The position numbers and the translations under genes are program-made. This document shows positions 18,910 to 45,197 of a stretch of 64,000 bases of DNA, piece by piece. Source of the stretch: Spirochaetia bacterium. GTDB taxonomy: Bacteria > Spirochaetota > Spirochaetia > SZUA-6 > Bin103. The stretch covers positions 6,846,445 through 6,910,444 of the forward strand of contig OZ253572.1 in assembly GCA_965262935.1 (NCBI GenBank), given 5' to 3'. Position 1 is the first letter of the stretch. Each line of letters opens with the position of its first letter. The notes beneath the pieces are model-generated. The model did not search any database, had not been told where the DNA came from, and saw nothing but the letters and a program-made list of their open reading frames with translations.

Positions 18910-20031
18910 TCACAGCGGCTCGCGCACCGCGGTGGCGCCAATCCAGCGGCCCGGCTTGGCGGCGGCGTCCTCCCCGCCACGCAGCACCCGCACGACCGCA
19001 CCGCGCGGCGCTGCCGCCGCGCCGCGCTCCGGGCCGCCAGCGGCGCCATCCTCGGCTTCAGGTTGCACTTCCGCTGGTTCATCGCCGGTCGCCTGGGCCT
19101 CCGGGTCGAGCACCGCCAGGTCGGCGTCGCAGCCCGGGTGGAGGCGCCCCTTCGCCGGCAGGCCCAGTAGCCGCGCCGGCTGCCAGCACAGCAGGGCCGC
19201 CAACTCCTCCAGGGCGATGTGCCCCGGCGCGACCCCCGCCCGCCACAGGTGAGCCAGCAACTGGCGGTCGGTGGCGGCCTCCTCGGCTCCGAGGCTCACC
19301 ATGCGCACCGTCCCGGAGCGCACCGCCGGCCACCACTCCGCGGCCGCCCTCGGCTCGGCGAGCAGCAGGTGCGCCGGCGCCGCCACCGCGATGCCGCTGC
19401 CCGGCTCGCCGCTGCGCAGCGCCGTCGCCAGCGCCGCCCGCATGCCGGCCGCACCGGCGGGAGCCAGCACCACCCGGCCGCCGTCGAGCGGCAACGGTAG
19501 CCCGCCGACGCTGCGCTCCATGACGCGTGCATCGTCGCTGAGCACCACCAGGGTCGCCCCGCAGTGGCCGGTCACCCGCACCAGGTCGTCGTCCCAGCCC
19601 GGCTCCGTCAGGATGCGGTCGTCGACCGCGAACGCCGCGCAGCCTTGCCCGAACACCGCCTCCGGCAGCACTTCCAGCTCCGGCTCCAGCCCCCGCAACA
19701 GCGGAATCGGCACCGCATCCACGGCGTACGCCGCATCGGCGTCGGGCTCCCCGTCCCCCGGCGGCGCGGCAGGCGCAGCGAGACTCGCAACCGGCACGCC
19801 CACCGTGGTGGCCGGGCAGCCGCCGCGCCCGGCCAGCGGCATGCCGGAACGGCACAGCACCACCGGGCCGGGAAATACCAGCTTGCCGGTCAGATCGCGC
19901 CACCCCGCCGCCTCGGCCGCATCCGAGCGCGCCATGCGCAGCGCGCGCACTACCCCGCCGCCCATCTCCAGGTCGGCCACGAACCGCCCGTCGGCATGCA
20001 CCACCAGCCCCTGATACAGCGTGCCACCCAT
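18910..20031 (-). CDS. amidohydrolase-superfamily protein, dihydroorotase-like, probably non-catalytic (metal-binding His motif replaced); repeat copy A
   Basis: C-terminal GRLHPGCDADLAVLDPE resembles DHOase-like amidohydrolases. The N-terminal V.PG.VD.H.H region reads LVFPGPVVLCRSG, as in PyrC'-type inactive paralogues. Confidence 0.55.
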   Translation of the reverse strand: MGGTLYQGLVVHADGRFVADLEMGGGVVRALRMARSDAAEAAGWRDLTGKLVFPGPVVLCRSGMPLAGRGGCPATTVGVPVASLAAPAAPPGDGEPDADAAYAVDAVPIPLLRGLEPELEVLPEAVFGQGCAAFAVDDRILTEPGWDDDLVRVTGHCGATLVVLSDDARVMERSVGGLPLPLDGGRVVLAPAGAAGMRAALATALRSGEPGSGIAVAAPAHLLLAEPRAAAEWWPAVRSGTVRMVSLGAEEAATDRQLLAHLWRAGVAPGHIALEELAALLCWQPARLLGLPAKGRLHPGCDADLAVLDPEAQATGDEPAEVQPEAEDGAAGGPERGAAAAPRGAVVRVLRGGEDAAAKPGRWIGATAVREPL

Positions 20032-20159
20032 CGCGACCGATTATACGCCCACCACTCCCGGTCCGACTCGCCCCCGAACATCCCGCCGCCCCGCGGCGGC
20101 GCGAGCGCCTCTCGCGTGGCGCGGGCCCGGAAATCTGCACGATCTACAAGGTCGGATTT

Positions 20160-20340
20160 GCGTGACTGGAAGAAAACCGTTCAGCGAGTTGGGCGATCAG
20201 CAGCTCCTCGACCAGACCAGGCGCCTGGCCGCCAATCAACGCAACCTTGAGGCGCACATGCTGGACCATCTCGACGAGAGAGATCGCCGCGGTCTGGCGC
20301 CGCGACGCGGCTTCTCGAGCCTGTTCAACTACACCCTTAT
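20160..20340 (+). pseudogene. N-terminal fragment of an HNH-endonuclease (DUF222-type) gene
   Basis: Translation FSELGDQQLLDQTRRLAANQRNLEAHMLDHLDERDRRGLAPRRGFSSLFNY matches the conserved start of high-GC HNH endonucleases, then degenerates into repeat element X. Confidence 0.4.
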
Positions 20341-20580
20341 TCGGTCTATTTGTAATTATTGTAATGGTTTACTTGTTTCACGAATATCCCGTTATTGCTT
20401 TCGCAACCCCTGGGTGATATCCGAGCATCCTTGACTCGCTTCGGTCTCGCGCCGTGACGCGCGCGGAGCCGGTCATCATGAATGTGGGCGGCGCCGACCG
20501 CGGCTCCGCCACCGCCGCGCCCACATCCCTGACCTTCTCGCACACGACTTGGGACACCGTCACACGGTAGGCCTAGCGGT
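20330..20580. repeat. repeat element X, copy 1 (~250 bp; second copy at 34040..34290)
   Basis: About 80% identity block from TTGTAA..TAATGGTTTACT through ...GTAGGCCT. It directly follows amidohydrolase copy A; copy 2 directly follows FG-GAP repeat B1. Confidence 0.7.
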
Positions 20581-20636
20581 GGAAACTACCCCGAATAGTA
20601 GCCGTAGTGCTGGTTAATTTGTGGTTCGATAAATAG

Positions 20637-20858
20637 TTACGGGAGGAGGCCGTGGCGTGTGTTCTGGTAGGCACTCAGATAGAGGCGGATAGCCTTCCAG
20701 ATAACGTCCGATCGGTTATGCGTGCCGGAGTCCGCAGCGATCGCGTCCAGCGCGTCGATCACCTCTTGGCGGATATTGGAGACACTGGCACGAAGGATCC
20801 CGTTGCGGCGGCATTCGAGCGCCTTCTCGATCTTGCTATTCAGGTCGTCCATTGGCAT
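20637..20858 (-). CDS. ribbon-helix-helix (CopG-like) small protein
   Basis: MPMDDLNSKIEKALECRRNGILRASVSNIRQEVIDALDAIAADSG has an RHH-like N-terminal beta strand plus two helices; low GC. Confidence 0.4.
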   Translation of the reverse strand: MPMDDLNSKIEKALECRRNGILRASVSNIRQEVIDALDAIAADSGTHNRSDVIWKAIRLYLSAYQNTRHGLLP

Positions 20859-21512
20859 GGCGCGCAGCGTATCGACCGCGGCCCCGCAGGGGCAAGGGGG
20901 CAAGGGGGCAAGGGGGCGTCATGGGTTGACAAATCTGTGCCGCATACTAATCTGGTTGCCGTATACGCGCCCGATGGAATGGAATTTCGTCCCAGAAATA
21001 GTTTACGCTCTCGTCGAGTTGCCGGCGGCGAGCTTTTCAGAACTGACCGACGCTCTAGATTAGGCCGTTTCCTCGGGAAATCTCAACAGGGTTCTCAGCG
21101 ACCGAAGCCCGCTGAGTGTAAATCCGGATGCCTTACGTAGGATGCTCGCCGAAGCAGAAGCGGATAATTAGCCTCCAGGGCTACCAGACGGCGGCCCTTG
21201 ACGTCAGCCGCGGGCATCGAACTGGAAGCCGGGAGCGTGCGACGGGTGAAGGGCTGGGGACAGCGATTTGTGCGCCGCGCCCTGGACGTCTTCTGCTCCG
21301 GGCCTCTATCCTTGACCTGCAACGCACTGGGTCAGACTGCGGTCATGCCGGGTCACCTGGTCGAATACAACAGATCCATCGCGGGGTGAGGAGTAGCTAC
21401 CTCACCCCGGAGCGAATAGTCAGGGACACCCACTTTCAAAGTGCGATCTGCACTCGGTGCGTTGCAAACACGACCCGGCACCTTTGGCTGCCGGGTGCTG
21501 GAGGCATCGCAC

Positions 21513-23111
21513 ATGGTGGCACAGGGGATGCTCAGGATCGTTCTCGGTGGACTGGTCATCGGTTCGGTGTTCCTTCTCGGGAGCTGCGAGGAAGTGGCAC
21601 CCAATTCCTCGCGTGCGGCCCCCGTGCCGACGGAGAAGCCTCCTATCTCGGACGACCCGCCAGAGCAACAGCCTGCGGATCCAGCAACAGCAGGCGCCCG
21701 CGTTTCGATCTCCTCGACGCCATCCGGCGCGCATGTCACCATCGACGGCGGTGCCGGCAACGCTCGCCGTCTCGCTGCGGCTGCCGCACCCATTACCACG
21801 CCAGCTACCATCGACCTCCCACCCGGCGATTACACTTTCACCATTACCAAGCCAGGAACTGGCACAGCGGGGGGCACTGTCAAGGTGGAACGTAACGCCG
21901 ACGTCAACCTCAACATCACCCTAAGCAACAGCACCGTCGCGGACCGACTGCCGGAGTTCGACAATCCCACGCTCCATTACTGGCACACGGAACTCTTCGG
22001 CCCCCTCCTCGGCGTGTCTCTGATAGAGGAACACCAGTATTACCCTGCACGCGACGACGAGGCCGAAAAGCGCGTCGTGCGGGGTGTGGCTGCCACGGCA
22101 GGCGACCCGCCTTACTCCTATGCCCTGACCGGTGTGCCGGTTGGCATGGTTTTCGATCCAGACACCAGAATCCTGTACGGCACGCCCGCCGTCGGTACTG
22201 CACTCATTTGGGAAGGCATCTACTCGATAACCGATGCTGATGGCGACACCACCGAGACCGAGATTATGTTCATCGTGTTTCCCGACTCCCGACCGTACTT
22301 CGATTCCGGCGTTGACGATCAGACCTACAAAACCGGGTCCGAGATAGTCCCGCTACAGCTGCCCGAAGTCAAGAGGACCGATATCACTATTCCAGAGAAC
22401 ACCACGGATCGGTCGGTCACCTTCGGAGGGAGGAGTGAAGGAACTCTCCCCGGCCATTGGGCGACCCGTGGTTGGGGCTCGTTCCCGGATTATGAGCCCG
22501 TCTCCGGCGTTCCCCACAACCTCTACCGAGACTACTTGTACGTGCGCAATCTCCAACCCGTACAATCGGGAGAGGTAACCGAGCCCGCAGCGTATTTCAT
22601 CGTCGGCACGCCCCAGGAGGTCGGCACTTTCCCGGTCACCTACACCATCGTCGATTCAAACGGCGATACGGCTGCGGTGGAGTTTACGATCACCGTCTTC
22701 GACCCGAGACCGAGACTATCTATAAGCGGCGGCCCTCTCATTGTACTTGAAGACGATAGGAACCCGAACACGTCTCATACCGAGATGTATTCGGTAACTA
22801 TGAATCGACTCAGCCATGAAACGGTGACTGTGGACATCGATACTGAGGACGGTACGGCAAAGGCAGGAGAAGACTACTCCGCAACCAATATGACGCTGAG
22901 TTTCGCACCAGGCACCTGGCACCAGCGTGTCGGCGTGGGAATCCGCAGCGATACGCTGGTTGAGCCTCCTGAGACGTTCTTCTTGAGGCTGAGCAACGCG
23001 GTGAACGCCACCATCGTAGATGAGCCTGAGCGCGGCCTCTTCGGGCGTTTCGCTGTCACGATCTGTGATAGGGGTTCTCCCGCCGCATGCGCCTCACCGA
23101 GAGAACCTTGA
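21513..23111 (+). CDS. surface lipoprotein with PEGA-like, cadherin-like (putative Ig) and Calx-beta domains
   Basis: Lipobox LLGSC after a signal peptide. The Calx-beta signature DGTAKAGEDY lies near the C-terminus; YSYALTGVPVGMVFDPDTRILYGTP is dystroglycan/cadherin-like. Confidence 0.7.
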   Translation: MVAQGMLRIVLGGLVIGSVFLLGSCEEVAPNSSRAAPVPTEKPPISDDPPEQQPADPATAGARVSISSTPSGAHVTIDGGAGNARRLAAAAAPITTPATIDLPPGDYTFTITKPGTGTAGGTVKVERNADVNLNITLSNSTVADRLPEFDNPTLHYWHTELFGPLLGVSLIEEHQYYPARDDEAEKRVVRGVAATAGDPPYSYALTGVPVGMVFDPDTRILYGTPAVGTALIWEGIYSITDADGDTTETEIMFIVFPDSRPYFDSGVDDQTYKTGSEIVPLQLPEVKRTDITIPENTTDRSVTFGGRSEGTLPGHWATRGWGSFPDYEPVSGVPHNLYRDYLYVRNLQPVQSGEVTEPAAYFIVGTPQEVGTFPVTYTIVDSNGDTAAVEFTITVFDPRPRLSISGGPLIVLEDDRNPNTSHTEMYSVTMNRLSHETVTVDIDTEDGTAKAGEDYSATNMTLSFAPGTWHQRVGVGIRSDTLVEPPETFFLRLSNAVNATIVDEPERGLFGRFAVTICDRGSPAACASPREP

Positions 23112-23357
23112 GATTGAGATGCGGAGCCGAAGGCGTGCGAGAGTTGGGAAGGCCCGATGGGGGGCAGCAGAGCGGTCCCTCTCTGTAATACTTGGCGACG
23201 GCGCCCTGCTCGGCGCTGCGACGAAGAAGGCAGGTGGTAGCCTCCCTACCCGGTGCGCCGCCATGTCCCGGTCGTTGCCCTGGCGCGATCTGGAGTCCCT
23301 GAGGGCGACCCGATTGCCGCCCCGGCTGTGCCCACCAGCCCCGCAAGTCTCGGTGGT

Positions 23358-24030
23358 GCGGTTGTGCGACGATCGGAACACGACCGCCCGGAAGCTATGC
23401 CGGCTCTTGGCGCTGGTGCTGCTGGTGGTGTTGGCTGATGCTGCGGCCCCGGCGCTGCCGTCGTGTCTGCCAAATTGCGCCGACGCGGATCTAAGCGGAT
23501 TTGATCTGGTAGGTGCTGACTTGGCACGTGCCGACTTCTCCTATGCCGATCTGGAAGGCGCGGACCTGACGGGCGCCACCCTCCGCTGCGCCACTCTGCA
23601 GGCCGCCAATTTGACCGGGGTGAGGCTCGCCGACGCCGACCTGACCGGAGCGGACCTATCGTTTGCGTATCTGGAGAACGCGGACCTATCGCACGCAAAT
23701 CTGACAAGGGCCGACTTGGCGGGTGCGATCATGTTCGACGCGAATCTGCGGGGTGCAGTGCTCGCGTATGCGTATCTCGGCGGACGGAACTATAGTCCGC
23801 GTCCCGGCTATATTGGCGCCTATCTATCGGTGATTCTGGAAAATGTCGACTTGACGGACGCGAACCTTGAAGGGGCGAACCTAACCGATGCATACCTGAT
23901 CGTCGTGAACCTGGAAGGTGCGAACTTGGCCGGAGCCAATCTGAGCCATGCAACTCTCACCGGCGCGGACTTCGCTGGCACCATTGGCTGCGACGTGACT
24001 GGACGCATTCCTGGCTGCGAAGCGCCATGA
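23358..24030 (+). CDS. secreted pentapeptide-repeat protein (paralogue 1)
   Basis: The signal peptide LLALVLLVVLADAAAPALPSCLPNCADADL is followed by about 35 A(D/N)LxG pentapeptide units. The start codon is uncertain (GTG at 23358 chosen). Confidence 0.6.
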
Positions 24031-24099
24031 TCGCACGCGCCGGAGGCCGAGCGGCCCAGATGCGGACCGATTCGAGCGAAATGGACCGCCGCGCGGCGG

Positions 24100-24240
24100 C
24101 TCCGCTCAGTCGCTCGCAGCAGCCGGCGCCGGCCTTGTCAATGGCAGGAAGCGGGCGATTGGCAGGCGCTCACCATGCCGGCGCACTACGCGCGGCACCA
24201 GCACGCTGCGCCGTCGCCAAGCTCCGCTAATAGCGGGCCG
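24100..24240 (+). pseudogene. tyrosine-recombinase 3'-end remnant (copy 1)
   Basis: About 90-nt identity to 27010..27100; encodes EAGDWQALTMPAHYA, the catalytic-Tyr region of an integrase. Confidence 0.35.
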
Positions 24241-24400
24241 GTAGCAGCGCATCGCAGCAGGGCCGCCGGCAAGCGGCTTTGCGCACGTCAGGTGGTATTA
24301 GGGAGACACCGTAGGGGCGTGACATTCCATTGATTGAATTCTAACATTTCCCCGGTGCCCCGGCCCGTCCGGCGGTCCAGTTTGGGAGCCATGTAAAGTT

Positions 24401-25294
24401 CTAAATGTTCTCGAACCAATTCGACTGGATACGCACGCTCTCGACCATCTCAGTCTCCACACCAAGGTGATTGTCCTTAAGCAAATCGCAGAGGCGATCC
24501 CCGTCGATAAGGTCAATCGCGATCGCGCCGTCACGAGTGGCCTCGGCTGACGCTTGATTGGAGAAATGGCCGGTGGTGGTGAACAAGCCTTTGTCGGCGC
24601 GTCCCTGCAACGCTCCGCGAAAATCTCTGATTTCCGTGGAACCGACGATTCCCTTCCAACGCTTACACTGGAAATAGACCCGGAACGATACAAGGCTCAC
24701 GCGTAGCATACCCACACCGTCGATCCCACCATCACCAGATTTTCCACGCACTTCGACTTTGGTGAACCCTGATTCGCGCAAAAGCCGTTGTGATAGCCGC
24801 TCAAACGCATCTGGAGGCATCGCGCCCAGCGTCGCCAAAAGCGAGGCCTTCCAGTCACCGACTTTATCTGAGCCCTCATCCGCCAGTTCCACGACATCCG
24901 GGGCCGCCTCTTTGTCAGCTTGCCGCTTGGTCCGTGTCCGGTCACGTTCTTCCAGCGTGACCTTCTCATAGATCGCGCGGGTCTCTTCGAGCTCCGTGAT
25001 CGCCACGCCACTTTCGGTCAGGGCCCAGACCCCGCGGGAAGAGTTCACTATCGCATTGCCGCGTTTGAGGTAGGTGCGAGCCCAGGCGAGGTAGTAGTTC
25101 ACTCGAGGCCGGTTTTCGTTCCGTAGCATAGTAAAGGTTAGCTCTGCTTCAGTCACACCCTCCAACTCGATCACCTTTTCGTCGAGCTCCTGAATGGTAG
25201 CCGATCCGCCCAAGACCTTAAGCGCCGCGACTACAGATAGCATCATTCCTGGTAAATTGGGCAGGCTCGCCGCGTCGATCTCAAAATGTCTCAT
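24401..25294 (-). CDS. mrr: Mrr-family type IV restriction endonuclease (Mrr_N winged helix + Mrr_cat)
   Basis: N-terminal MRHFEIDAASLPNLPGMMLSVVAALKVLGG (Mrr_N); C-terminal GKSGDGGIDGVGM ... FQCKRW ... FTTTGHFS (PD-(D/E)xK Mrr_cat). Low GC. Confidence 0.8.
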   Translation of the reverse strand: MRHFEIDAASLPNLPGMMLSVVAALKVLGGSATIQELDEKVIELEGVTEAELTFTMLRNENRPRVNYYLAWARTYLKRGNAIVNSSRGVWALTESGVAITELEETRAIYEKVTLEERDRTRTKRQADKEAAPDVVELADEGSDKVGDWKASLLATLGAMPPDAFERLSQRLLRESGFTKVEVRGKSGDGGIDGVGMLRVSLVSFRVYFQCKRWKGIVGSTEIRDFRGALQGRADKGLFTTTGHFSNQASAEATRDGAIAIDLIDGDRLCDLLKDNHLGVETEMVESVRIQSNWFENI

Positions 25295-26053
25295 CACCTT
25301 CTCAGGTTCGGCTATCTGCTGGCCGCCCGTCAAACCCGCTTCGGGCACCCACCCCACTACCAGCAGCGATGCACGGGGCCGTTGCGGCCGGTCCACGGGG
25401 AACCCCTGCGCCGCTCGTGTCCGTCACCGTGGGCAACGGCGCAGTGCCAGCCTCCACACACGGGGACGCGGGTCGGTCACCGCCGGGCGATCAGGACGCG
25501 GCCACCAGCGGCGGCCAGAATTGCTCCGGCTCGAAGCCGGCTTCCCGCGCTAGGCGCTCACGCGCTTGGTCCGCTTGGTCGCCGGTCTCCAGAGGTGGCA
25601 CGTCATGGCGGCCAGCGGCGCTCCAGCAGCCACGCGGCTTCGTGCGGCGGCCAGGGCGCCGCACGGTGCGGGCTCGGTCATGCTCGAAGTCTACCACCGG
25701 GGCGGCGCGAAGGGGAGCACGGGGCCGCGGCGTGACGGGCGCCGAGCGGGCCGCCGCAATCTCAGGCCGGCCGTGCGTACTCGGCAAGCCGCGCCCTGGG
25801 GTGGGCGGAAGCCCACCACCCCAGGGGGTCTACATCCGGCCGGCAGTACCCGACGTTAGGTTAGGCCGCCAACGCGGTTAGGGACCCCCGGCCCCCCTGT
25901 ACCCTTTAGAAAGTAGACAGTTCGTCAGGGCCTGCTAGAATCCCAGACGGGCAAGGCAACCTGCCGGGAGCAACCTTGGCCCCCCTGCGCCAGAGAGCAC
26001 CTGGGGGCCAGCGGGCGCTACAAGCAAAGCGTGAACTGAGGTAGTATGTGCGC

Positions 26054-26716
26054 ATGACTGCGTACAAAGCAGGAAGCCGTATGCACTGGTTGGTTTGGTT
26101 GACCGTCGCCTGCCTAGGTCCCGCTCTCGTCTCCTGCGCGACCCCCGATGTGTCGGCCTCCTACCTGGTGAGCAAAGGCTTGGACGTGAAGGAACGGGAC
26201 GAGAAGGGTCGGACGATCCTGCACCGCGCTGCCCAGGAAAGTGATGATCCGCGGCTGGTAGAGGCGATAATAGCTGCCGATGCGGACGTAAACGCGCGGG
26301 ACGAGGATGGCCTTACTCCCCTACACTACGCCGCTGCGTTCAATAGAACTCCGGAGGTCATTGAGGTACTGATAGCTGCCGGTGCGGACGTAGACGCACG
26401 AGATGAGGTGTTGGCCGCGACTCCCTTGCATCGCGCAGCAACATTCAACGAGCACCCGAAAATCGTTGAGATACTGATAGCTGCTGGCGCGGACGTTAAC
26501 GCACAGGCCAAGGGTGATTTTACACCCCTTCATCTGGCGGCAGGGAATAATTACGCGGAGGTTATAGAGGCGCTACTGGATGCGGGTGCTGATACGTCCG
26601 TGAGAACCGTCGACGGCGGTACCCCCTTTGATTATGCAGAACAACGGGAAGACTTGGCGGTGATCCGCGAGTATTCGGTTTACAGGCGCCTGCGCGACGA
26701 ACGCGATTCCGAATAG
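26054..26716 (+). CDS. ankyrin-repeat lipoprotein (four to five ANK repeats)
   Basis: Lipobox LVSC after MHWLVWLTVACLGPA; repeated TPLHxAA..G....V..Li.aGADVNA units. Confidence 0.75.
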   Translation: MTAYKAGSRMHWLVWLTVACLGPALVSCATPDVSASYLVSKGLDVKERDEKGRTILHRAAQESDDPRLVEAIIAADADVNARDEDGLTPLHYAAAFNRTPEVIEVLIAAGADVDARDEVLAATPLHRAATFNEHPKIVEILIAAGADVNAQAKGDFTPLHLAAGNNYAEVIEALLDAGADTSVRTVDGGTPFDYAEQREDLAVIREYSVYRRLRDERDSE

Positions 26717-26865
26717 TCACCGATTCCGCTGGGCGCCGATAGCATCCGCGCCATAGTGCGCGGGCCGTTGACGGCCGGCCGGACGGCAGCGTCACCGTGA
26801 CGGTGCGAAGCTCGTAAACCGACCAGGAAGGGCGCGGGCACGTCCGCTACCTCGGCGCGACTACC

Positions 26866-27114
26866 ATGCAGCGCTTGGCTACGTGGCATGGCGGCGCCGG
26901 CATCACCGCCGGCGGGCCGTTGTTCCGCCAGGTGCTCAAGGATGGCGCCACCTCCGGGTCGGCTCCGCCAGTCGCTTCGCAGCAGCAACCGCCGCCAGTC
27001 GAATTGCAGGAGGCGGGCGATTGGCAGGCGCCGACCATGCCGGCGCACTACGCAGGGCACCAGCTTGCAGCACGCGGCACCGTCGCCAAGATCCGCTACC
27101 AGGCGGGCCGGTAA
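26866..27114 (+). pseudogene. tyrosine-recombinase 3'-end remnant (copy 2)
   Basis: ELQEAGDWQAPTMPAHYAGH aligns with the E.M.AG.W....M...Y catalytic-tyrosine motif, and with remnant 51176..51394. Confidence 0.4.
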
Positions 27115-27627
27115 AGGCGCGGACGCACCAATCGTCCGTGGTATCACCAAAGTCTTTCCTGACAAACTGATAGATACCAGGCTCAGCAGGAGGTTCCTGA
27201 CGACTTGGACGGCCTCTCCCAAGTATGCTCATCGCGTGTCTCCTTCTGGATGTTGTTTCGCCGCCGACGCCGGTTCGCAACGGTGGCCAGGACGATAACA
27301 CACTTGCCGGCGGGTGGACGCGTGGTCTACCAGGCACAGCAGGCACAGGCAGGGGGCGCTCAGGCGCCGCCGGGCCAGAATCCGGGGTACATTAGACACC
27401 GGCCCGCCCCCGCGACCATGCCGGCATCGAGCGCACGCTCCGCGGCATCGAGCGTGACGGCGCGGGCCGTGGCCAAGCCTCACCGCTCACCCAGGGGCCG
27501 CCTCGCAGCGGGGTTGCTGCTCAACGAAACGGAAACCACTGCCGGAGTGGCTGCGGCGCGTGGAGCGACTGATCGAAGTAGCGGCTGACCGCCAAGGCGC
27601 TACTCCCACAAGCGCCATGGCCGGCGG

Positions 27628-28287
27628 TCAGCACCCCGGCGCCAGCGGGCGTGGCGTCGTTTGCAGGTCGCAGTTCTTCACCCCCGCGATGTTGACCGTA
27701 TCCCACCCCAACACCCCGGTCAGATTTGCGGCATACAGGTCGGCGCTGCTCAGATCGGCATCGGTCAGATTGGCCCCGCTGAGGTCGGCAGTACCCAACA
27801 ACGTGAATGCAAGGGTCGCGCCGGTCAGATCAGTGTCGGTTAGGTCGACGGCCCACATACTTGCCCCACGCAGTTCGGCGCTACGCAAGCTCGCTCCACC
27901 CAAATAAGCGCGGGTCAGAACGGCGACGAGTAGATTTGCGCCGGCCAGATCGGCGCGGACCAGGTTTGCCCCGATAAGGTCTGCGCCGATCAGAATCGCG
28001 TCCCGCAGGATGGCATCGTCCATAATCGCGCCGTGTAGATCGGCGCCGCTAAGGTCCGTGCCGATCAGGATCGCGTTGCTCAGGTAAGCGCGTGCCAGCT
28101 TCGCATCGCTCAAGTCGACCCGACTCAGGTCGGCCCGCTCGAAGTCGGCACGGGCGAGGTTGGCACCGCTCATGTCAACGCCAGCCAAGTCAGCCCCTGC
28201 GCAGTTCGGCAGGCACTGTGGCAGCGCAACAGCACCGCTGGCGACGATCACCAGCAGCAGCAGTACAAGGCGAATCATCGGCGACAC
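27628..28287 (-). CDS. secreted pentapeptide-repeat protein (paralogue 2)
   Basis: Signal peptide MSPMIRLVLLLLVIVASGAVALPQCLPNCAGADL; pentapeptide repeats throughout; C-terminal LGWDTVNIAGVKNCDLQTTPRPLAPGC is shared with the other paralogues. Confidence 0.75.
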   Translation of the reverse strand: MSPMIRLVLLLLVIVASGAVALPQCLPNCAGADLAGVDMSGANLARADFERADLSRVDLSDAKLARAYLSNAILIGTDLSGADLHGAIMDDAILRDAILIGADLIGANLVRADLAGANLLVAVLTRAYLGGASLRSAELRGASMWAVDLTDTDLTGATLAFTLLGTADLSGANLTDADLSSADLYAANLTGVLGWDTVNIAGVKNCDLQTTPRPLAPGC

Positions 28288-28377
28288 CCTACACCACGGA
28301 GCACACGGCGGCTACGGTGTACTCTGACGGCGGACTGCCTGGCGCATCAGCCATAGCAGCGGCTGGCGCCTCGGCGC

Positions 28378-28917
28378 TTGGCTCTGCTTGCCACCGCGGG
28401 GATGCCGGCCTCACCGCTCGTCTCTCCGGCGCCGGAGCTGGCACCCGGCGTGTTCCCTGACGGCGGACTGCCTGGCGCATCAGCCGAAGCAGCGGCTGGC
28501 GCCTCGGCGGATGCCTCTGCTGCCGACGCGGAGATGCCGGTCTCGCCGCTCGTCTCTCCGGCGCCGGAGCCGGCATCTGGCGTGTATTCTGACGGCGGCC
28601 CGAGCGGCGTCTCAACCGGGGCGGCGGCGCACACAGCCCGCGATTCTGTCCACGGCCGCCACCAATCCCCGCCGCGGCGCCACATTACTGCGGCTGTCCG
28701 GCGCCACGTATGGCAATGCGACGGTGGACGCTGCTGTTATCGCGATCCGCTCACCGGGCGCCGCTGCACCTCTTCCCATCTGCTCCAGATCGACCACCTG
28801 TTGCCGGTCGCCCAGGGCGGTGGCGCGAACCTGTTCAACTTACGCCTTCTCTGCTTTGCCCATCGCAGCTTGCGCCACGGCCATGGGTCGGCTGTGCCGC
28901 CGGAACGCCCCACGTAG
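28378..28917 (+). pseudogene. HNH endonuclease C-terminal fragment preceded by about 129-bp tandem repeats
   Basis: RRHVWQCDGGRCCYRDPLTGRRCTSSHLLQIDHLLPVAQGGGANLFNLRLLCFAHRSL is a complete HNH motif. 28310..28600 holds 2.3 copies of a ~129-bp unit. There is no N-terminal domain. Confidence 0.5.
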
Positions 28918-29573
28918 CGCCTCCTCCGCGCTGCTGGCGCGCCGGTCGACTCGGCTCGCCGACGGCTTGCAGGTGGACGTGGCTGGGCGGGACACCCTTC
29001 GTATCTCCGCGCGCCAAGCGCACAATCTTCGCCGCCGCATCATCAGATCCTGGCCGTGGTCTGCCATCTACGACCCTCCCGCTTCCGGCGATCGGCACCA
29101 TCGCCAACGAGCCGCTCTGCAGCATCGCTAGCGCACCGTCTATAATGGCCGTCAACCCATGCATCCTCCTGCCGGCATCGAGCTTGTCGCACGCATGTCG
29201 CGGCTCATTCTGCGACTGCGCCTGATCGCGGCGTTCGCGGCCGGGGTGCTCGCAGTCGGCTGCCGGGCCTTCGTTGCCGATCCCGGATACCGGGCAACGC
29301 AGTTGCCGGACGATCTCACCAAGCTCTTCGAGGTGCAACAAGTGGTGGCGAATCCGGACGCCGACACGGTGTGGATCTTCGAGGAGGGCGGCCCTGCGCA
29401 CGAGAGACCGGATCCACGAAGCACTGCAGGAACAACCCTGACGAGGCCACGCCCCGGCCCCGGTAGCGCACCAGAGCGCCCCGAACTCCCCCCAAACCAT
29501 GTCTGGCGATGTCTGGCGCGGTCGCCGTTGACAGTCCCATTACATCATGTTACCGCCCGGTTCCACCGGTTCC

Positions 29574-29975
29574 ATGCAAGACTTGACAGCCGTGGGCAAG
29601 GAACCGAGACTTTATGGCGATACCGTCCCTGTAGAGCGCCGTCGCCTGTACGAGCTATTCCTTGACCTCGTCGCGCAGCTCAGCGAGCTACAAGTCCGAG
29701 GCGATCTTTTCGTTGGCGGCAGCTTTGTGACGAAAAAGTTCAAACCGAACGACATCGACGTCGCCATCGACCTAAGCCGCGAGCCGCCGTCGTCGCCGAG
29801 CCCGCGCGTCGCGTGGCGGTTAAGCGAGGATTTTTACCCGAAAGGATTGCAATTACTCCCCGTTCTCGCGGTTGGCCGCAATTACCTGGAATGGCTCCAG
29901 CAGGTTAGACCGTTCGATTGCATGGTGTTGGGCCTGCCGGTCAACCATCGCAAAGGAATCCTGCGGGTCGCCTGA
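29574..29975 (+). CDS. minimal nucleotidyltransferase (MNT / Pol-beta-like NTase fold)
   Basis: GGSFVTKKFKPNDIDVAIDL fits the hG[GS]x9-13DhD NTase signature. 133 aa. Confidence 0.55.
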   Translation: MQDLTAVGKEPRLYGDTVPVERRRLYELFLDLVAQLSELQVRGDLFVGGSFVTKKFKPNDIDVAIDLSREPPSSPSPRVAWRLSEDFYPKGLQLLPVLAVGRNYLEWLQQVRPFDCMVLGLPVNHRKGILRVA

Positions 29976-30922
29976 TGGGCATTTGGGTCGACGCGGCCCG
30001 AGCATCGTTGCGTATTGTCCTGAACGAGTTGGCCGCGGCGCGCCTTGGAGACGAGGAGTTGGCTGACGCGTCGCGTTGGAGTGTTCTTGAAGGGATGCTC
30101 GCTGACTATAGCGTCGCCAAAGTCCTCGACGCCTCCGATCTCGTCGCGCGCTTGGAAGGGCCGGCGGTGGAATCTGGTACGCCCGCTTCCCTTGCGTCAT
30201 GGATCATGGACCTGATGTGGAAGCAGGTTAAGGCTGCCACGACTACGACCGTGGCCCTCTCCAACGCCACGGAGAGCGCGTTCGCCGGCTGGGCGCCGCG
30301 GTGGCCGAAGAGCCTCAGCGTTGACCTAACTGGAATCGGGGAAGGGAGCCTCTTCCTCGGGTTTCGCGCATCGCGGGATTCCCACCAGGAGGCAGGGTTC
30401 CTGGACACCGCGTTTGATGCCATGCACTCCGTCCTGAGCGGCATCGCCGAGGCGCCCGGCTTTTTCACTGAAACCGGCGTCCGGGAGGAAATCTCCGAGC
30501 GGTTTCCCGACCATGCGATCCGAGACTCCCTCCTTTCCGCCGTGTACAACCTCGCGCCTACCGGGCGGCGCGGCATCGCCTCCGTTACCTTCTATGCGGG
30601 CGGCGAGCCGGCGCGCCCGGCCGTGCCGCTCACCGCCGCGACCCGAAGATTCCTCAGGCCCTTGCTCGATAAACCGGTATCGTCTGATGTCAGCGGTGAG
30701 TTCCGCGGGACGATCCGCGCGGTCGATCTCGACGCCCGGCGGTTCGTGCTAAGAGGGGTTCCCGACGTAGGGGCGATTCGATGCGCGTATCCGGCAGCGC
30801 TTGACGCGCGCGTCCGGAGCCTGCTCGCCTCGGGGGCGAAAGTCGAGGTCCGTGGATCTCACGAGCCGACCAATCGTCCCCGCCTAGTGCAGGTGGAAGG
30901 CGAGATCGCGGAGGCCGAGTAG
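29975..30922 (+). CDS. hypothetical protein (315 aa), translationally coupled to the NTase
   Basis: Its ATG overlaps the TGA of the upstream gene (TGATG). No known motif, only a weak RASRDSH (Rx5H) candidate. Confidence 0.5.
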   Translation: MGIWVDAARASLRIVLNELAAARLGDEELADASRWSVLEGMLADYSVAKVLDASDLVARLEGPAVESGTPASLASWIMDLMWKQVKAATTTTVALSNATESAFAGWAPRWPKSLSVDLTGIGEGSLFLGFRASRDSHQEAGFLDTAFDAMHSVLSGIAEAPGFFTETGVREEISERFPDHAIRDSLLSAVYNLAPTGRRGIASVTFYAGGEPARPAVPLTAATRRFLRPLLDKPVSSDVSGEFRGTIRAVDLDARRFVLRGVPDVGAIRCAYPAALDARVRSLLASGAKVEVRGSHEPTNRPRLVQVEGEIAEAE

Positions 30923-31400
30923 GCCATTGACAACCCGGCCCGCACGCTAGATGTGGTTCGGGGATCAAGGGATCGGCGGCGGCCGGCACGGCTACCTGGG
31001 CAGTGAGAAGGCCGTCCCTGCTCAAGAGGTCCCTGGTCTGGGCCGACCGCAGGACCGGCCGCGCTGACGTCCTCTTGCGTTCTCCCGTTCTTGCCCTTCC
31101 TCTTTTGGCAGATTCGCCTTGAGCATTTGCGGCGTCTGTTCAGGGAAGAACGGGAGAAATTGGCCGACCCTGACTCCCGGCGGGCCAAAGCCGAATTGGA
31201 GGCTTTGCTCAAGCGGGACGCCCCGTGACCCCGAGGTCCTCCACCGCGCAGTTTCGCTGCACTCCGCCGAGAACGCCCGGTGGGTAACGGCGAACAGCAG
31301 CAGTGCGAAGAACGGTGGCCCGCTCGTTGGCGTCGTATGAGCTTCAACCGTCCGGCCCATGCCATCCCAATATAGCGCGTCCGCTATTTTCAGATCGTGA

Positions 31401-31832
31401 CTACGCCGCTCGCGTAGCAACCGTCAGGCGCTGGCCCAGTGCATGTAGCGCCGTCTCGATCTGGCCGATGTGCGATCGGTGATCGAGGTCGATCAGCCGA
31501 CGCATCGCGCCTTCGCTAAGCCCGAGCCGCTCCGCTAGCGCGGTATTGCCGACGCCCTGCTCGTGCATCGCGCCGTAGAGCGCAATCTTGGCGGCAACCA
31601 GCACCGGCAGCGCGACCGGCGTCCGCCCGCGGACCGGGGACGGCGCGGGAATAGGGTGCCGGCTCTCCACGTACCCGCCAAGGGCGGCTATCACGCAGTC
31701 CTGCGCCTCCGTCAGCGCTTCGGCTTCCGTCGCCCCTTCGGTCAACGCCTCCGGGATGTCCGGGAACGAGACGAGGATCGAACCGTCCTCCTGCCGTTGC
31801 AGGTCCGCTGGCCAGACCAGTCTCTGCGTCAT
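31401..31832 (-). CDS. hicB: HicB-family antitoxin
   Basis: The N-terminal UPF0150/HicB fold reads YPADLQRQEDGSILVSFPDIPEALTEGATEAEALTEAQDCVIAAL; the C-terminal part is HTH-like. Confidence 0.7.
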   Translation of the reverse strand: MTQRLVWPADLQRQEDGSILVSFPDIPEALTEGATEAEALTEAQDCVIAALGGYVESRHPIPAPSPVRGRTPVALPVLVAAKIALYGAMHEQGVGNTALAERLGLSEGAMRRLIDLDHRSHIGQIETALHALGQRLTVATRAA

Positions 31833-31853
31833 CCTGCTTTCCCTCCACTGCGT

Positions 31854-32252
31854 TCAGAGATCGTCGCGACTCAGTCCGAGCTGCCGGAGCATCGCCGCCA
31901 AGAGTCCCGCTCCGATCTCCTTGCGCCGGTTCTTGATAGTCGTGAAGTGTTCACCGTAGTACAGCCGCCCGTGGCTTCCCTTGCCTGCACGAGGGTCAAA
32001 CCGTACCGCAACCCCACGCTCTCGGCCCAATCGCCGCACGCGGCGCACGAACTCCTCACCGGTCAAAATATCCCGTACAGATTTGTACGAAACAATACCT
32101 GCCGGGTCAAGGGTATGTGGCCGAATCCGGTCGGGAGCGCTTTTCCAGCAGCCGGCCCGCTGATCATTCTCAACTCGCGCAAGAAGATGCTGATCGAGCA
32201 GGTGCTCTCGGTGCTGACCGCAAGAGTTCGCCCAGGAACCGGCGGCGACCAT
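31854..32252 (-). CDS. hicA: HicA-family mRNA interferase toxin (start uncertain, possible N-terminal extension)
   Basis: The C-terminal YKSVRDILTGEEFVRRVRRLGRERGVAVRFDPRAGKGSHGRLYYGEHFTTIKNRRKEIGAGLLAAMLRQLGL carries the GSH motif. The ORF could extend to 32399. Confidence 0.6.
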   Translation of the reverse strand: MVAAGSWANSCGQHREHLLDQHLLARVENDQRAGCWKSAPDRIRPHTLDPAGIVSYKSVRDILTGEEFVRRVRRLGRERGVAVRFDPRAGKGSHGRLYYGEHFTTIKNRRKEIGAGLLAAMLRQLGLSRDDL

Positions 32253-32978
32253 GGCGGTGGTGCCGATCCTGCTGGTGTCCTCTTCTCGTAGCGCTACTTC
32301 GTACGGGATCGCACTCACCGGCCTACTATAGTAGCGGAGCCGCGCGGCGGGCGCAGAGGTTGGCGTCGAAGCGCTGCAGGCGGGGCCAGGAGGTCTCAAT
32401 CGTCGTCTGGTACAGTCACATACGCAATTCGCGTTCGCCTGCTGTCATCCCATCCGGGATGGTATCGACATGCAGCGAATCCACCCCTCGCTGTCTTCCT
32501 CATCCATCGAGTTGTTGTCCTGGCGAATGTCAGCGTCGCCGTGCTCTGATCCGCACTCATCGTCACCGTCCAGGGTCAAGTGATTGGCTTCTGCGGTTTC
32601 AAAGAATCGCTGCATCCCATCCGTTTGGCGGGAACGTGTCGGTCGAACCTGGCAAGGTTGCAGCGAACAGATGCTCGGGTATACTGCGCCTGCTCAAGGG
32701 TCTGCTGTCGCACCTCGACCCGCGCATGTCATGGGGCGACTTGGTGACACGCCTGGTGCGCGATGCGGTAGCGCGGCACGACCCGCGCGGCGCCGGTAGC
32801 GGGCACAGGCGGCGCAGCGAGGGTAGCGCGGGCGCGTCACCGCAGCGGACATCGAACAAGAGCGGCTGGACCTCTGTCACGACGCCGGCCTTGTGGGGAG
32901 CCCGTCAGTCGAGCCATTTGCGGCTGACGGGTTCATTTCTATTTACCTCTCTATTTTACAAATTGCGCTGTTTGTGTT

Positions 32979-33785
32979 GTGGTCATGGCAATGAAACTGA
33001 TAAGGGCGGCCTTCCTGCTGGCCGCCATCACCGTAGCAGGATGCTGGGCCGCCACCACCGCGACGGCCCAGCCGGTCGAGCAGCCGTCCCAGAGTTGCAC
33101 CGTCCGGCAGCCCGACCCCACCTTCACGACCATCGAGACGGAGAACGCGCTGACGCGCCCGCACCGCGTGGTGGCGGTAGCGGACTGGAACGGAGATGGC
33201 CTCGACGACCTCGTGGCGTTCCCGTGGGTCGAGCACAGCAACGACCCCGCCGACCGCCATCAGACTGCCCCGCTCGCCATCTTGCTGGCTCAGCCGGACG
33301 CGACGTTCAGTCGGTTGCTGGCGCCGGGACTGACCGTCGAGGCGCGCGACCCGATCGTGCTGGTGGAAGACTTCAACCAAGATGGCACGCCCGACATGGC
33401 CGTCTTCGATGCCGGAGTCTACGCGACGGCTGAATCGACCGGCTACGGCAACCCACCGCAGCTCCTGTTGAGCAGACCTGACTTCACCCACGAGCTCTCC
33501 AGTGCGCTGGCCGACGCCGTCGCGGCCCACCGACACTCGCTCGGCCCCGACCTCCACCTCAAGAGCGCGACAATCGGAGACATCGAATGCGCCGACCTTG
33601 TGGTGTCGGGCTCCCGCCATGATTATCCTTTCGTCTACCGCCGCGTCGGCGACAGCTTCAAGCTGCAGGACCGTCCCCTCACGACCAACAACGGCTACGC
33701 CGCCGACGTCAACGGCGACGGTGCGGTCGACTTCGTGTCGCTGCCGGGCGGCACCGACGTCGAGGTGTTGCTGAACCGGCAGTAG
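32979..33785 (+). CDS. secreted FG-GAP/VCBS-repeat protein
   Basis: Signal peptide MVMAMKLIRAAFLLAAITVAGCWA; motifs DWNGDGLDDLV, DFNQDGTPDMAVFD, DVNGDGAVDFV. Confidence 0.7.
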   Translation: MVMAMKLIRAAFLLAAITVAGCWAATTATAQPVEQPSQSCTVRQPDPTFTTIETENALTRPHRVVAVADWNGDGLDDLVAFPWVEHSNDPADRHQTAPLAILLAQPDATFSRLLAPGLTVEARDPIVLVEDFNQDGTPDMAVFDAGVYATAESTGYGNPPQLLLSRPDFTHELSSALADAVAAHRHSLGPDLHLKSATIGDIECADLVVSGSRHDYPFVYRRVGDSFKLQDRPLTTNNGYAADVNGDGAVDFVSLPGGTDVEVLLNRQ

Positions 33786-33975
33786 CGGGCCAGCACGCAG
33801 AGCGTGTTGACGTTATTGACAGGGTGTGGAGAGATTGTACGTGCGTCCACGGTCGTTAGGGCATTTACGGCTGGGGCGTGGCCTTACTGAAGCTCGTCCA
33901 GACGCTCGTTGAGTAATCTGGCGAGCTCTTTACATTTCTGAGCCGCCACCTTCGCGGGCGGCCGTGTAGGTGTCT
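33587..33975. repeat. direct repeat B1 (3' end of the FG-GAP gene plus 190 bp downstream), duplicated at 61846..62236
   Basis: About 95% identity over ~390 bp. The second copy carries an extra A (CGCCAATGATTAT versus CGCCATGATTAT). Confidence 0.85.
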
Positions 33976-34039
33976 TGCCTGTTCGACTGCACCATTATTG
34001 GGCCTTTCCGCGTGCGGTTAGCCGCGCGCGGCGGGTTTG

Positions 34040-34290
34040 AGCTGGTCTATGTGGTCTTTTGTAAATTCTATAATGGTTTACTCGGTACCCCAATATCCGG
34101 TTATTGCTTCCGCAACCCCTTGATGGGCAGCCGATCATCGTTGATTCGCTTCCGTCTGGCGCCGTGACGTGCTCGGAGCCGGTCATCATGACCGTCGACG
34201 GCACCGAACGCAGCTCCGTCACCGCCGCGCCCACCTCCCTGACCTTCGCGCACACGACTCGGGACGCCGTCAAGACCGTAGGCCTGAGCG
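34040..34290. repeat. repeat element X, copy 2
   Basis: Homologous to 20330..20580; a degraded HNH N-terminal remnant (SCLFDCTII) spans its upstream junction. Confidence 0.7.
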
Positions 34291-34581
34291 TTACGACGGC
34301 GACGCTGAGTCAGAAGGCATCGCCCCAGTGCGGTTCCGGTCACGATTATTCCGAAGGTCCCGTTTACTTAGCGTTTCGTGCGGCTCTTCTGCTTTCCGCA
34401 GCCTCCGAATTCCGCGCTCATCAGCGCCCCATGAGTGTTTAATCAGCCCGCCGTCGCCGCGCCGCGCGTCGACACCCTGCGACGCCTCGAAAGCCGCCTA
34501 CAACCCGTCGGCCGTACCACGCTACGCGGGACCGACAAGCTGCGGCGTCGTATGTCTCCAGCTCACCAGTTCCGCTTGACG

Positions 34582-35607
34582 CTACGAATTCGTCACATCC
34601 TCGTCCGCAAGGTCCAGGGGAATACGGACTCGGTGAAACTCTGGAGCGTTGAGACTCCCCGAGGCAAATACCATTCCTCTCGCCGTGCCACCCGGTTTCC
34701 AATCCGGGTAGTCAAGTAGGACGTTCGATAACGTCACCTCTGTTGGACAATTCGTCTTCGGATCAAGAAAACCAGTCCCTTTGAGCTTCAACTCCCCGGT
34801 TGTACGCCCTGCGCCTGTACTGTCCCTACATGACTGAATGAGCCGAAAGTCAAAATACACTTGATCAGCATTATCCGTAGCAAAGCAATGAACTTCCCCT
34901 CTTACGCTACCGACGGTTTCGAATCCATTTTGCAGCAACAACTCTGTCACTGCATCACCTTCTTGGTCTCTAATCGACTCGAATATCTGTACCATAGAGA
35001 GTTTCATAGGCACACGTATTTCGCTCAGAAGATCATTCAGATCCTTCTTCAAGAGAACTCGATTGACGTCCGAGCACTCTTTCATCTCGCTGACCAACTC
35101 AGAAGCGAGCCCCTTTTCGTAGCTTTTCTGTTCGTAGAAGTCCGTATCTTGCGTAACAAAAAACACATCTCCTTCTTGGAGCAACTCGAGACAATGCGCC
35201 CAAATTACTCCGTCGCGGAACTCCTCCTTGGTCTTTGATGGCGGGATTCTCCTGATTATCTTTATCATCGAAGACCGAGCAACATCTACATTAAACTCAA
35301 CCTCACGGACTGGGACATCAAAATTTGACACGATGCGAGAGACCACTCCTCGGATGTCTTCTTCGAGCGGCAGCGTAAGACGCTGCAACTTGTGAAACAC
35401 CTGCAGCAGCTGTTTGTGGCTGTCTGCTGCTTGTTTTCTTAGCTTCAACAAGTGACCCGTCAGCCGCTCCTCTATTTCGAGTCTTACGATTTCCGGGACT
35501 ACGACAGTCGCCCCTTGTCTCAGGGCGAAGTGACGAACGGCGGCACCACTCCGTGATTGGAGACCCAATTGGGAAAACCACACATTTGAATCGAATAGTA
35601 TGAACAT
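34582..35607 (-). CDS. PIN-like domain protein (DUF4935-type) with a ~220-aa C-terminal extension
   Basis: N-terminal MFILFDSNVWFSQLG, with the first acidic residue of the PIN fold in the FDSN motif, then conserved acidic positions. Low GC. Confidence 0.55.
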   Translation of the reverse strand: MFILFDSNVWFSQLGLQSRSGAAVRHFALRQGATVVVPEIVRLEIEERLTGHLLKLRKQAADSHKQLLQVFHKLQRLTLPLEEDIRGVVSRIVSNFDVPVREVEFNVDVARSSMIKIIRRIPPSKTKEEFRDGVIWAHCLELLQEGDVFFVTQDTDFYEQKSYEKGLASELVSEMKECSDVNRVLLKKDLNDLLSEIRVPMKLSMVQIFESIRDQEGDAVTELLLQNGFETVGSVRGEVHCFATDNADQVYFDFRLIQSCRDSTGAGRTTGELKLKGTGFLDPKTNCPTEVTLSNVLLDYPDWKPGGTARGMVFASGSLNAPEFHRVRIPLDLADEDVTNS

Positions 35608-36532
35608 ATGAGTTTCACGGGCGCGACTAAGAGAGTTGTTCTCCGCCAAATCGGAGGGGGCACTTGCCATGGATAGGCAGTGTAGCAGTCAACGCGTAGG
35701 CGCGCTACCCTTTGGGGGGCGCGGGGGCGCGGATTCGGAAACGATGGAAACAAGCTGCCCGAGCGTAGCTTCGGAGTCGTCAGATCAGCTTCCCAATGCA
35801 GTCTCGCCGCGACGCTCCGGTAGCCGTTGCGAAGTTGTTCCACCGATCGCTACATTCGTGACGCGACACCGCGGCGCTCGTCGGTCTCCAACTCCGTCAA
35901 ACGCTGCAGCGTGACCCGTCCCACCTGACGCAAGACGTCGTCGTTGGCATGCTTCTCAGCTTGTTCCGGTCTACAATCCGGCGCCGACAATCCGGCGCCG
36001 TGGTGGACATTCAACGGACGATATGAGTATTGCTCCTATCATGGCATTAGGAATCGCAGCGACGGGTGGCCGGGGACGTTCCGGCACCTGTCCGGCTTGG
36101 AGGCCGGGGGTCACGCGCCGTCGGCTGGCGACGCGGGGACGTCGACCGATGGTTGGAGGCTCTGCCGAAGGCGTAGGCCGCCGTCGTGGGCGTGCCGGGA
36201 CCGGAGGGAAACCCCATCCGGCAACGCGGCAACCACCGAGTCGGCACGACAGTTATTCGCGGAAACAACCCAAAACCGCCAACAGGAAACTAGTGGGGAT
36301 CAAGCGATCACTGCCGGGTACTCATAACCGTTGGAGCGGAAGGCATGCTTAAGCTGTACTGGGGTGACGCCAAAGCCTGAGCGGGTTGGCGGCGGAGGGC
36401 TTCGAAGGAGAGGGCCAGCGGGCCGCCGCTGCGGGGGGAGCCGGGGGTGCCGGCTCAAGGACGGGGAGCCCGAGAAGCCGCGGTCCCGGAACTGCCACGA
36501 GCCGAGGCTTAGTCGACAGGGTGTTTTCATAC

Positions 36533-45185: not shown

Positions 45186-45197
45186 AGTGTTCTCCGT

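Follow-up and report, generated by a model that had tools for sequence, protein, structure and literature searches.

A repeated element in a Spirochaetia defence locus is probably an attachment-site arm of integrase-borne islands that insert into an HNH-family gene

Why does an element of some 300 bp occur twice, with different neighbours, in one defence-rich locus? The question is raised by a stretch of 64,000 nucleotides (nt) from a Spirochaetia bacterium (GenBank assembly GCA_965262935.1, contig OZ253572.1, positions 6,846,445 to 6,910,444 of the forward strand; the whole stretch is called the window here). An earlier note had described this element, X, as derived from an HNH endonuclease gene and as sitting immediately after the first copy of each of two large direct repeats. 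We conclude that X is very probably the island-side arm of the left attachment junction (attL) of a family of integrase-borne islands, which insert at a 15-bp core within an HNH-family gene. X is non-coding, lacks a conserved RNA structure and has a 14-nt motif in common with the integrase-side arm of these islands; hence, the island-side arm of attL is what it most likely represents.

Both copies of X are present, and the coordinates and quoted strings of the note are accurate. In a comparison of the window with itself, X1 (20343-20578) and X2 (34053-34290) are 82.8% identical over 239 nt (E = 8e-55), and a profile search of the window returns only these two copies, with no third. A collinear 23-nt match lies just 5′ of both (20319-20341 versus 33977-33999). 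Comparison with a complete island in a related locus, L017 (assembly ERZ25074053), sets the length of X at about 300 bp. Hence, X2 (33991-34349, + strand) is a full-length second copy of the putative arm, and X1 (20333-20578, + strand) is short of about 60 nt at its right end. X2 also has an extra G+C-rich segment of about 52 nt (34003-34054) between the 23-nt match and the rest of X, and this insertion holds an imperfect hairpin (CCGCGTGCGG-TTAG-CCGCGCGCGG). The G+C content of the first 68 nt of X1 is 32%, that of the surrounding genome 65-70%.

Directly to the left of X1 stand the first 57 codons of an HNH-family gene (20162-20332, + strand), the left half of a disrupted target and the attB side of attL. 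The HNH N-terminal remnant that had been noted upstream of X1 is therefore real: window 20161-20332 is 85% identical in DNA to the 5′ end of the uninterrupted gene in locus L007. The remnant ends in the attachment core AGCCTGTTCAACTAC (20318-20332, + strand), found by a scan of the window and differing by one mismatch from the 15-bp consensus AGCCTGTTCGACTAC, which covers codons 53-57 of the HNH-family open reading frame (ORF). A core-like 15-mer, TGCCTGTTCGACTGC, with two mismatches, precedes X2 (33976-33990, + strand). The left junction, in the order HNH N-terminus, core and X, has a breakpoint identical to the nucleotide in the window, L001, L002, L006, L008-L010 and L013-L019. Unrelated contexts and an inconsistent boundary of X elsewhere would, by the earlier note's own criterion, have refuted its reading; the opposite is found, the boundary being the same everywhere. 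The empty site is seen in L007, where the gene is uninterrupted, albeit frameshifted in a low-coverage long-read contig. It reads TTCTCG, then AGCCTGTTCGACTAC, then GCGCTGCGCGAG (longer left flank GGGTTCTCG), and the core is present there once. When the ORF that crosses from the HNH remnant into X (20162-20431) served as a protein query, 59 short metagenome proteins of two classes were returned. In about 25 clusters, GFSSLFDY is followed by the X-encoded TIIGSICKYYNGL.VTPISRYCFRNPLVVSDHP and a stop; in the other class it is followed by AVRELRFTDAAAQRRIQ, the continuation of the intact gene, and these are further unoccupied sites. The switch falls directly after TTCGACTAC in every sequenced copy.

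A protein search with the part of the gene beyond the breakpoint led to the right junctions, in the form of two ORFs whose N-terminus is foreign up to a join at SLFDY. In L011 (ERZ28763718) and L012, the order is an integrase of 392 residues on the opposite strand, an AT-rich arm of about 170 nt, the core and the HNH remainder, and the junction reads CAATGTTTT, AGCCTGTTCGACTAC, GCGGTGCGGGAG. The HNH remainder at the right junction is 573 residues long and scores above the PF01844 cut-off. A scan of JGI data with a junction 19-mer gave 12 matches, four of which have the same build (L020, L028, L030, L031); the other eight look like chance. L017 holds a complete island of 5.19 kb between perfect 15-bp direct repeats. 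Its left part comprises the HNH N-terminus, the core (10166-10180), X (10181-10479), a fragment of an integrase 3′ end and an AlpA-like gene, followed by cargo of one FRG-domain gene and one gene without a recognised domain. Its right part comprises the integrase (14004-15182, − strand), a 173-nt arm, the second core (15356-15370) and the HNH remainder. L017 9797-10180 and 15356-16957 align to L007 9796-10180 and 10166-11767, so that the flanks rejoin to an uninterrupted gene. The integrase lies inside the island beside one junction in L011, L012, L017, L020, L028, L030 and L031. In L005 and L004, an integrase, an AlpA-like gene, about 450 nt, the core and X are contiguous, an attP-like junction as might be expected between tandem elements.

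The integrases of L011 and L009 score above the Pfam cut-offs for Arm-DNA-bind_3 (DUF4102), Phage_int_M and Phage_integrase, and the arm-binding N-terminal domain fits a predicted need for arm sites. The target is a protein-coding gene and not the 3′ end of a tRNA or transfer-messenger RNA (tmRNA) gene, the usual target of P4-like integrases. In the window, the remnant of an AlpA/excisionase-like helix-turn-helix gene (Y; 36068-36259, + strand) has matches in four related islands (L009 15102-15294, L005 2667-2775, L002 861-980, L017 10881-10997), and the matching ORF of L002 has a Phage_AlpA domain. The orientation of the AlpA-like gene relative to X is the same in L017, L009, L005 and the window. 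In L002 (109-1237, against L017 10181-11018) it is flipped, X and the gene standing tail to tail 14 nt apart, which points to inversion inside some islands. X has so far been found in a few GTDB metagenome-assembled genomes (MAGs) and in ENA assemblies. A scan with a 20-nt block of X, one genome per species, found copies in three MAGs, two of them labelled Spirochaetia (L001, L002, L004, L006) and one Chloroflexota (L005, two copies); an X-internal pattern had no match in IMG/VR and none in JGI metagenomes.

Comparisons between strains place the change of sequence at the same point. Two of the loci, L018 and L019, come from variants of the organism of the window and have a single X each. Over the 200 nt that end with the core, the window and L018 are identical; over the 200 nt that follow, they are 83.5% identical. 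L008 and L009, from one sample, have about 9.5 kb of upstream genes in common and then unlike cargo: genes without recognised domains, an IS3 element and a shortened HNH remainder in L008; a DUF2971 gene, an integrase of 401 residues, an AlpA-like gene and an Eco57I-like restriction-modification system in L009. Identity between the two is 99.0% for the 200 nt that end with the core, falls to 85.6% in X and drops to 58% past X. Divergence beginning inside X was considered for this pair and rejected, as a windowed identity count places the step at the core. The junction anatomy, the duplicated core, the empty site, the right-junction integrase and this identity step between strains are what the data show directly. 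The single X of L018 is 89% identical to X2 and 84% to X1. L018 6440-6975 is collinear with window 34054-34586 (X2 and its downstream flank; 89.8%), and L018 6975-10198 matches window 36414-39630 (the res gene) at 97.7%; L018 jumps straight from the equivalent of 34586 to that of 36414. Since L018 and L019 have one X, near X2 in sequence and leading into res, the window carries an extra 13.7 kb or so headed by X1. Moreover, X1 and X2 (83% identical) are as distant from each other as are copies of X from different genomes, which argues for two separately arrived alleles and not for a local duplication.

These observations suggest the following model. A P4-like tyrosine integrase would move islands into the core AGCCTGTTCGACTAC of the HNH-nuclease-family gene. 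The attachment site of the circular form (attP) would consist of the integrase-side arm, the core and X; by position, X would be the P′ arm, which is kept in attL. Integration would split the HNH gene, leaving its N-terminus, the core and X on the left, and the integrase, the arm, the core and the rest of the gene on the right. Tandem integration at the core of an occupied site would yield two X alleles in series. In the window, the HNH locus would hold two consecutive island modules, the first (module 1) extending from X1 to about 33975 and the second (module 2) from X2 onward, both of which would then have decayed, with the integrase and right junction lost and the HNH gene left in three displaced pieces. 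The surviving pieces lie at 20162-20332, 28317-29054 and 32683-32861. We infer a second integration event, at the core and in the lineage of the window, as the source of module 1. The suggestion of the earlier note that X marks one boundary of a mobile unit present twice is thus borne out: the boundary is the left end, and the two units stand in series, each with its own allele of X.

The cargo of both modules includes defence and surface-protein genes. In the cargo of module 1 (20579-28316), Pfam matches identify a ribbon-helix-helix protein, a Calx-beta/PEGA surface protein, two pentapeptide-repeat proteins, Mrr (a type IV restriction enzyme, mREase_IV in PADLOC) and an ankyrin-repeat protein; the whole segment is absent from L018. 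It is followed by the 3′ part of the HNH gene and its native downstream flank (28317-29054, + strand), with 133-nt repeats, an HNH domain that matches PF01844 weakly, and a stop at 28917. The C-terminal HNH fragment that had been noticed here is genuine and longer than had been thought: homology to the gene covers 28317-28933 and that to the downstream flank continues to 29054. The segment matches L007 11637-12218, L011 11461-11904 and L017 16811-17377, and beside it the core of the right junction is missing, as is about 1.5 kb of the HNH gene. The 133-nt tandem repeats (28317-28628) encode a Pro/Ala-rich linker of the HNH protein and also occur in L007, L008 and L017. A third piece, a displaced middle fragment of the gene (32683-32861, + strand), is 86% identical to L007 11081-11259 and also matches L008, L011 and L017. 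In module 2, a PIN_12-domain gene (34582-35688, − strand; Pfam), absent from L018, lies between X2 and the AlpA-like remnant. Beyond the remnant stand the type III restriction-modification genes res and mod (36386-42574, + strand), 97.7% identical to L018, with the Pfam domains ResIII, RE_endonuc and N6_N4_Mtase and the PADLOC assignment MTase_III.

The two large direct repeats require separate treatment. Repeat A (18910-20034 versus 50125-51189, 84-95% identical) corresponds in its first copy, A1, to an amidohydrolase gene (18910-20040, − strand; Pfam Amidohydro_1/3) that lies outside the mobile unit as the chromosomal left neighbour of the HNH locus. A short third piece of this repeat occurs at 53388-53690, where 53560-53690 is 95% identical to 19610-19741. 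A1 ends at 20034 and is separated from X1 by 298 nt, which include the HNH remnant; it is near X1 because the amidohydrolase gene is a neighbour of the HNH locus, as it also is beside the HNH N-terminus in L018 and L019. Repeat B1 (33584-33982, + strand), which comprises the 3′ end of an FG-GAP gene and the tail of a minus-strand ORF, is 95.75% identical to B2 (61849-62247, + strand) and directly abuts X2. Placing X immediately after a repeat is thus correct for B1 and X2 and wrong for A1 and X1. The string SCLFDCTII is present at the end of B1 as described, and the homology of B1 and B2 stops at 33982, inside the core-like 15-mer, so that the left 7 nt of the latter are also the end of B1. 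The B1/X2 junction, which has 6 nt (GCCTGT) in common with the core and cuts the minus-strand ORF, is a secondary rearrangement. At B2 the sequence continues into that ORF, which is intact there (62150-62467, 105 residues), and B1 is therefore the derived, truncated copy. An ORF beside B2 (62434-62911, − strand) is 81% identical to L009 11043-11523, which sits about 650 nt downstream of X; hence, B2 also lies within island-type DNA. No X follows A2 or B2. Elsewhere, in at least 15 loci, X is preceded on its left by the HNH N-terminus or by an island arm and never by a counterpart of A or B, so that the proposed association of X with repeat ends gives no rule, and the link of X with these repeats is incidental.

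Several other identities for X were tried and rejected. Derivation from the HNH gene, as the earlier note had proposed, fails, as similarity to the gene ends at the 15-bp core to the left of X, and only that core is HNH sequence. X1, X2 and the X of L017, compared with three HNH genes by blastn (word size 7) and tblastx, gave only short G+C-rich matches (best E 4e-4). A protein-coding role was rejected since neither the internal ORF starting at ATG nor the frame read through from the HNH N-terminus has a codon-position bias (entropy by codon position 0.49/0.47/0.59 and 0.44/0.46/0.50, respectively); several copies have frameshifts or stops, and a Pfam scan of the ORFs of X found no match. A promoter was rejected after a consensus scan found no sigma-70-type site in either copy. 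X is not derived from a tRNA either: the core and the start of X form no T-arm or acceptor end by eye, and no tRNA was detected at the junctions by ARAGORN or Rfam. L005 does have a tRNA gene, truncated by the end of the contig (1-54), about 360 nt upstream of a copy of X whose left flank resembles an island arm and not HNH sequence.

A miniature inverted-repeat transposable element or the end of an insertion sequence (IS) was also rejected: X occurs at one end of the island only, and no inverted repeats of at least 60 nt were found in the window. The duplicated 15-mer is the target's own sequence and an integrase lies at the other end, which again argues against an IS end. Insertion sequences do occur in X. 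An IS630-like element splits it in L006, and an IS110 element cuts it short in L010. In L013-L016, positions 9490-11737 of each are taken up by a 2248-bp insertion sequence that has a UPF0236-family transposase and is 100% identical in four different contexts of one metagenome. It encloses the N-terminal HNH remnant, the core and some 85 nt from the start of X; the junction fragment is therefore spreading as a passenger of this insertion sequence. A link with a group II intron or retron was rejected too, as the reverse transcriptases of L001 and L004 belong to one 99.8%-identical mobile group II intron and are incidental. The two introns (L001 1363-3386, L004 1096-3697; Rfam RF02005, reverse transcriptase of 446 residues) are in the same MAG and lie a few hundred nt downstream of X in opposite orientations.

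If X is at the left end of the islands, is it a working arm, or merely the first DNA of the island? We favour a functional arm that would be bound by the integrase and by bending proteins. The alternative, which we regard as unlikely, is that X is passive DNA with no role in integration, the fossil of a promoter and of some 35 initial codons of a surface-protein gene, which lay by chance where an ancestral island had its left end, homogenised by recombination. Its 3′ half does translate to a string resembling immunoglobulin-like (Ig-like) or Calx-beta-like sequence, with a Shine-Dalgarno sequence and ATG or GTG; its indels, of 12 and 27 nt, are in frame; X1 has lost its last 60 nt or so; and insertion sequences and group II introns insert in or beside X without apparent penalty. 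Yet conservation is highest in the AT-rich start beside the core and in a central block around GTTATTGCTTTCGC (20391-20404 in X1), both non-coding. X is kept at every left junction examined, at 73-89% identity, with two integrase lineages and in MAGs of different phyla (labelled Chloroflexota and Spirochaetia), and the adjoining cargo is wholly different between loci. The HNH coding sequence to its left is sometimes far more diverged than X itself, as in L002, where about 40% of residues are in common with the window, judged by eye. Furthermore, the 14-nt central motif (best-conserved block GTTATYRCTTTMGC) recurs in the same orientation in the integrase-side arm of L011, L012 and L017 (estimated chance in a 170-nt arm about 4e-4). 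A 9-mer, CGTCAAGAC, is also common to X and the arm, a match not significant by itself. Conservation beside the core, retention at every junction and the recurring motif all argue for the arm over passenger DNA.

Two further explanations were weighed. That X is a recombination hotspot making or marking the ends of the segmental duplications A and B is very unlikely in our view. Each X does have the first copy of a large repeat on its left, there is the 6-nt microhomology with the core at the B1/X2 junction, and beside B2 there is cargo of island type that L009 has downstream of its X. However, these are two cases of unlike geometry (298 nt and a gene remnant for A, direct abutment for B), A is a normal neighbour of the HNH locus even in the one-X strains L018 and L019, which largely refutes the idea, and neither a counterpart of A or B beside any other X nor an X after A2 or B2 is seen. 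Least credible of all is a small RNA or cis-regulatory leader encoded by X, acting on excision or on expression of the truncated HNH peptide or the cargo. Such a role would fit the conservation of this non-coding sequence, its AT-rich box resembling TATAAT and its conserved hairpin (GGAGCCGG...CCGGCTCC), whose loop varies in length. However, X folds like its shuffled controls (single-fold z = −0.17 and 0.08), which led us to reject a structured RNA, and the RNAalifold covariation term of the alignment is positive (+1.61), with almost no compensatory changes. A known RNA family was likewise rejected, the gathering-threshold Rfam scan of the window giving tRNA-Met only and a permissive scan of 20100-20750 nothing credible; the lack of a sigma-70-type site, and downstream genes that differ at each locus and usually lie on the opposite strand, also speak against an RNA. 

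Finally, the HNH-family gene might serve defence islands as a dedicated landing pad, with docking at its conserved 5′ codons, stacking and swapping of islands, integration and excision switching the nuclease gene, and the X arm as a shared homology anchor. We consider this extension rather unlikely. If true, excision and integration would turn the nuclease gene on and off, like the prophage-borne switches known for other interrupted genes, and the X arm would let strains exchange cargo even after loss of the integrase.

Several points weigh against X being an attL arm of islands stacked by integration. The window itself contains no integrase, by tblastn and Pfam scans, and no right junction; the case hence rests on the related loci, and the copies in the window are remnants. 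Module 1 contains pieces of the HNH gene (28317-29054 and 32683-32861), which a clean second integration would not bring, so that further recombination and deletion are needed. L018 could also derive from a window-like ancestor by recombination between X1 and X2, with loss of the 13.7 kb. X accompanies two integrase lineages that are 60% identical to each other, and it stands in both orientations relative to the integrase/AlpA module (L002 versus L017, L009 and L005). In L005 and L004, the long arm that precedes the core lacks the motif that X and the integrase-side arm have in common. The 3′ half of X translates to a string such as TAAPTSLTFSHATWDTVKTVGLSV and may be the fossil of a surface-protein gene; this half and the in-frame indels would fit hitch-hiking DNA equally well. 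Binding of the integrase to X and a requirement for X in recombination are likewise predicted roles.

Further features of the window were noted. Some 39 or more tandem copies of a 21-nt unit, encoding 7-residue repeats, lie at 14700-15900 inside an ORF (14620-15897), and the L018 counterpart matches the window in many shifted registers. Ten tandem copies of a 19-nt unit, GGGAAGGGGGTAGGGTCCA, occupy 63181-63438, and the adjacent 63122-63178 has 86% identity to a segment of L001 (1114-1169) situated there between X and the group II intron. Patches of low G+C hold further defence systems (2488-5350, 44001-46163 and 53733-56484), namely a helicase and DUF2290 pair, a cyclic oligonucleotide-based antiphage signalling system (CBASS) cyclase with a patatin phospholipase, and an OLD/GajA/AriA-like ATPase beside a T5orf172 protein. 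Transposases of IS1595 type and ISAzo13 type are present as well (46418-47272 and 59470-60696).

Taken together, both the repeat of X and the defence-rich mosaic of about 45 kb would be explained if integrase-borne islands had stacked up at a single site in an HNH gene and then decayed. The related loci define a natural pair of integrase and attachment site, with the 15-bp core, both arms, two integrase lineages, the empty site and both junctions, which could serve for targeted insertion in uncultured high-G+C bacteria. The core and X also provide a sequence marker for variable defence-gene loci in the MAGs that carry them. No new kind of mechanism is revealed: this is mobile DNA of an ordinary kind, at a target site for which we found no report; the literature was searched for integrase targets in HNH genes, and nothing specific was returned.

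How do these islands compare with known systems? P4-like islands, whose integrases have the DUF4102 (Arm-DNA-bind_3) domain, reside at tRNA and tmRNA genes and carry an AlpA-type regulator, CP4-57 being an example. The present islands resemble them in the domain architecture of the integrase, its place beside one junction, the AlpA-like helix-turn-helix gene, the short core duplicated at both ends, the variable and often defensive cargo, and tandem accretion and decay at the site. They differ in that an HNH-family protein-coding gene is the target and the core and start of X are unlike a tRNA 3′ end, and in that the island-side arm is unusually long (about 300 bp) and well conserved between distant MAGs. 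A looser parallel is the prophage-like element phiRv1 of M. tuberculosis, whose attB lies, according to PMC9317374 (citing Bibb and Hatfull 2002) and PMC1931498, inside REP13E12 repeats and whose integrase is a serine integrase. There too attB is within a repeated chromosomal element; the enzyme is a serine integrase in that case and a tyrosine integrase here. The ORFs of REP13E12 are HNH-type (DUF222) proteins. Pfam finds no DUF222 domain in the present HNH-family gene, so that homology to the REP13E12 target gene is only a supposition. Closer are the islands integrated in dusA, which, as described by Farrugia et al. 2015 (PMC4482086), are highly diverse, have their own integrase family, and have the integrase and junction sequences in common. 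The target gene and the integrase clade differ from those described here, where the left junction leaves only a 57-codon stub reading through into the non-coding X; each group of islands relies on a tyrosine integrase and on a single site close to the 5′ end of a conserved protein-coding gene.

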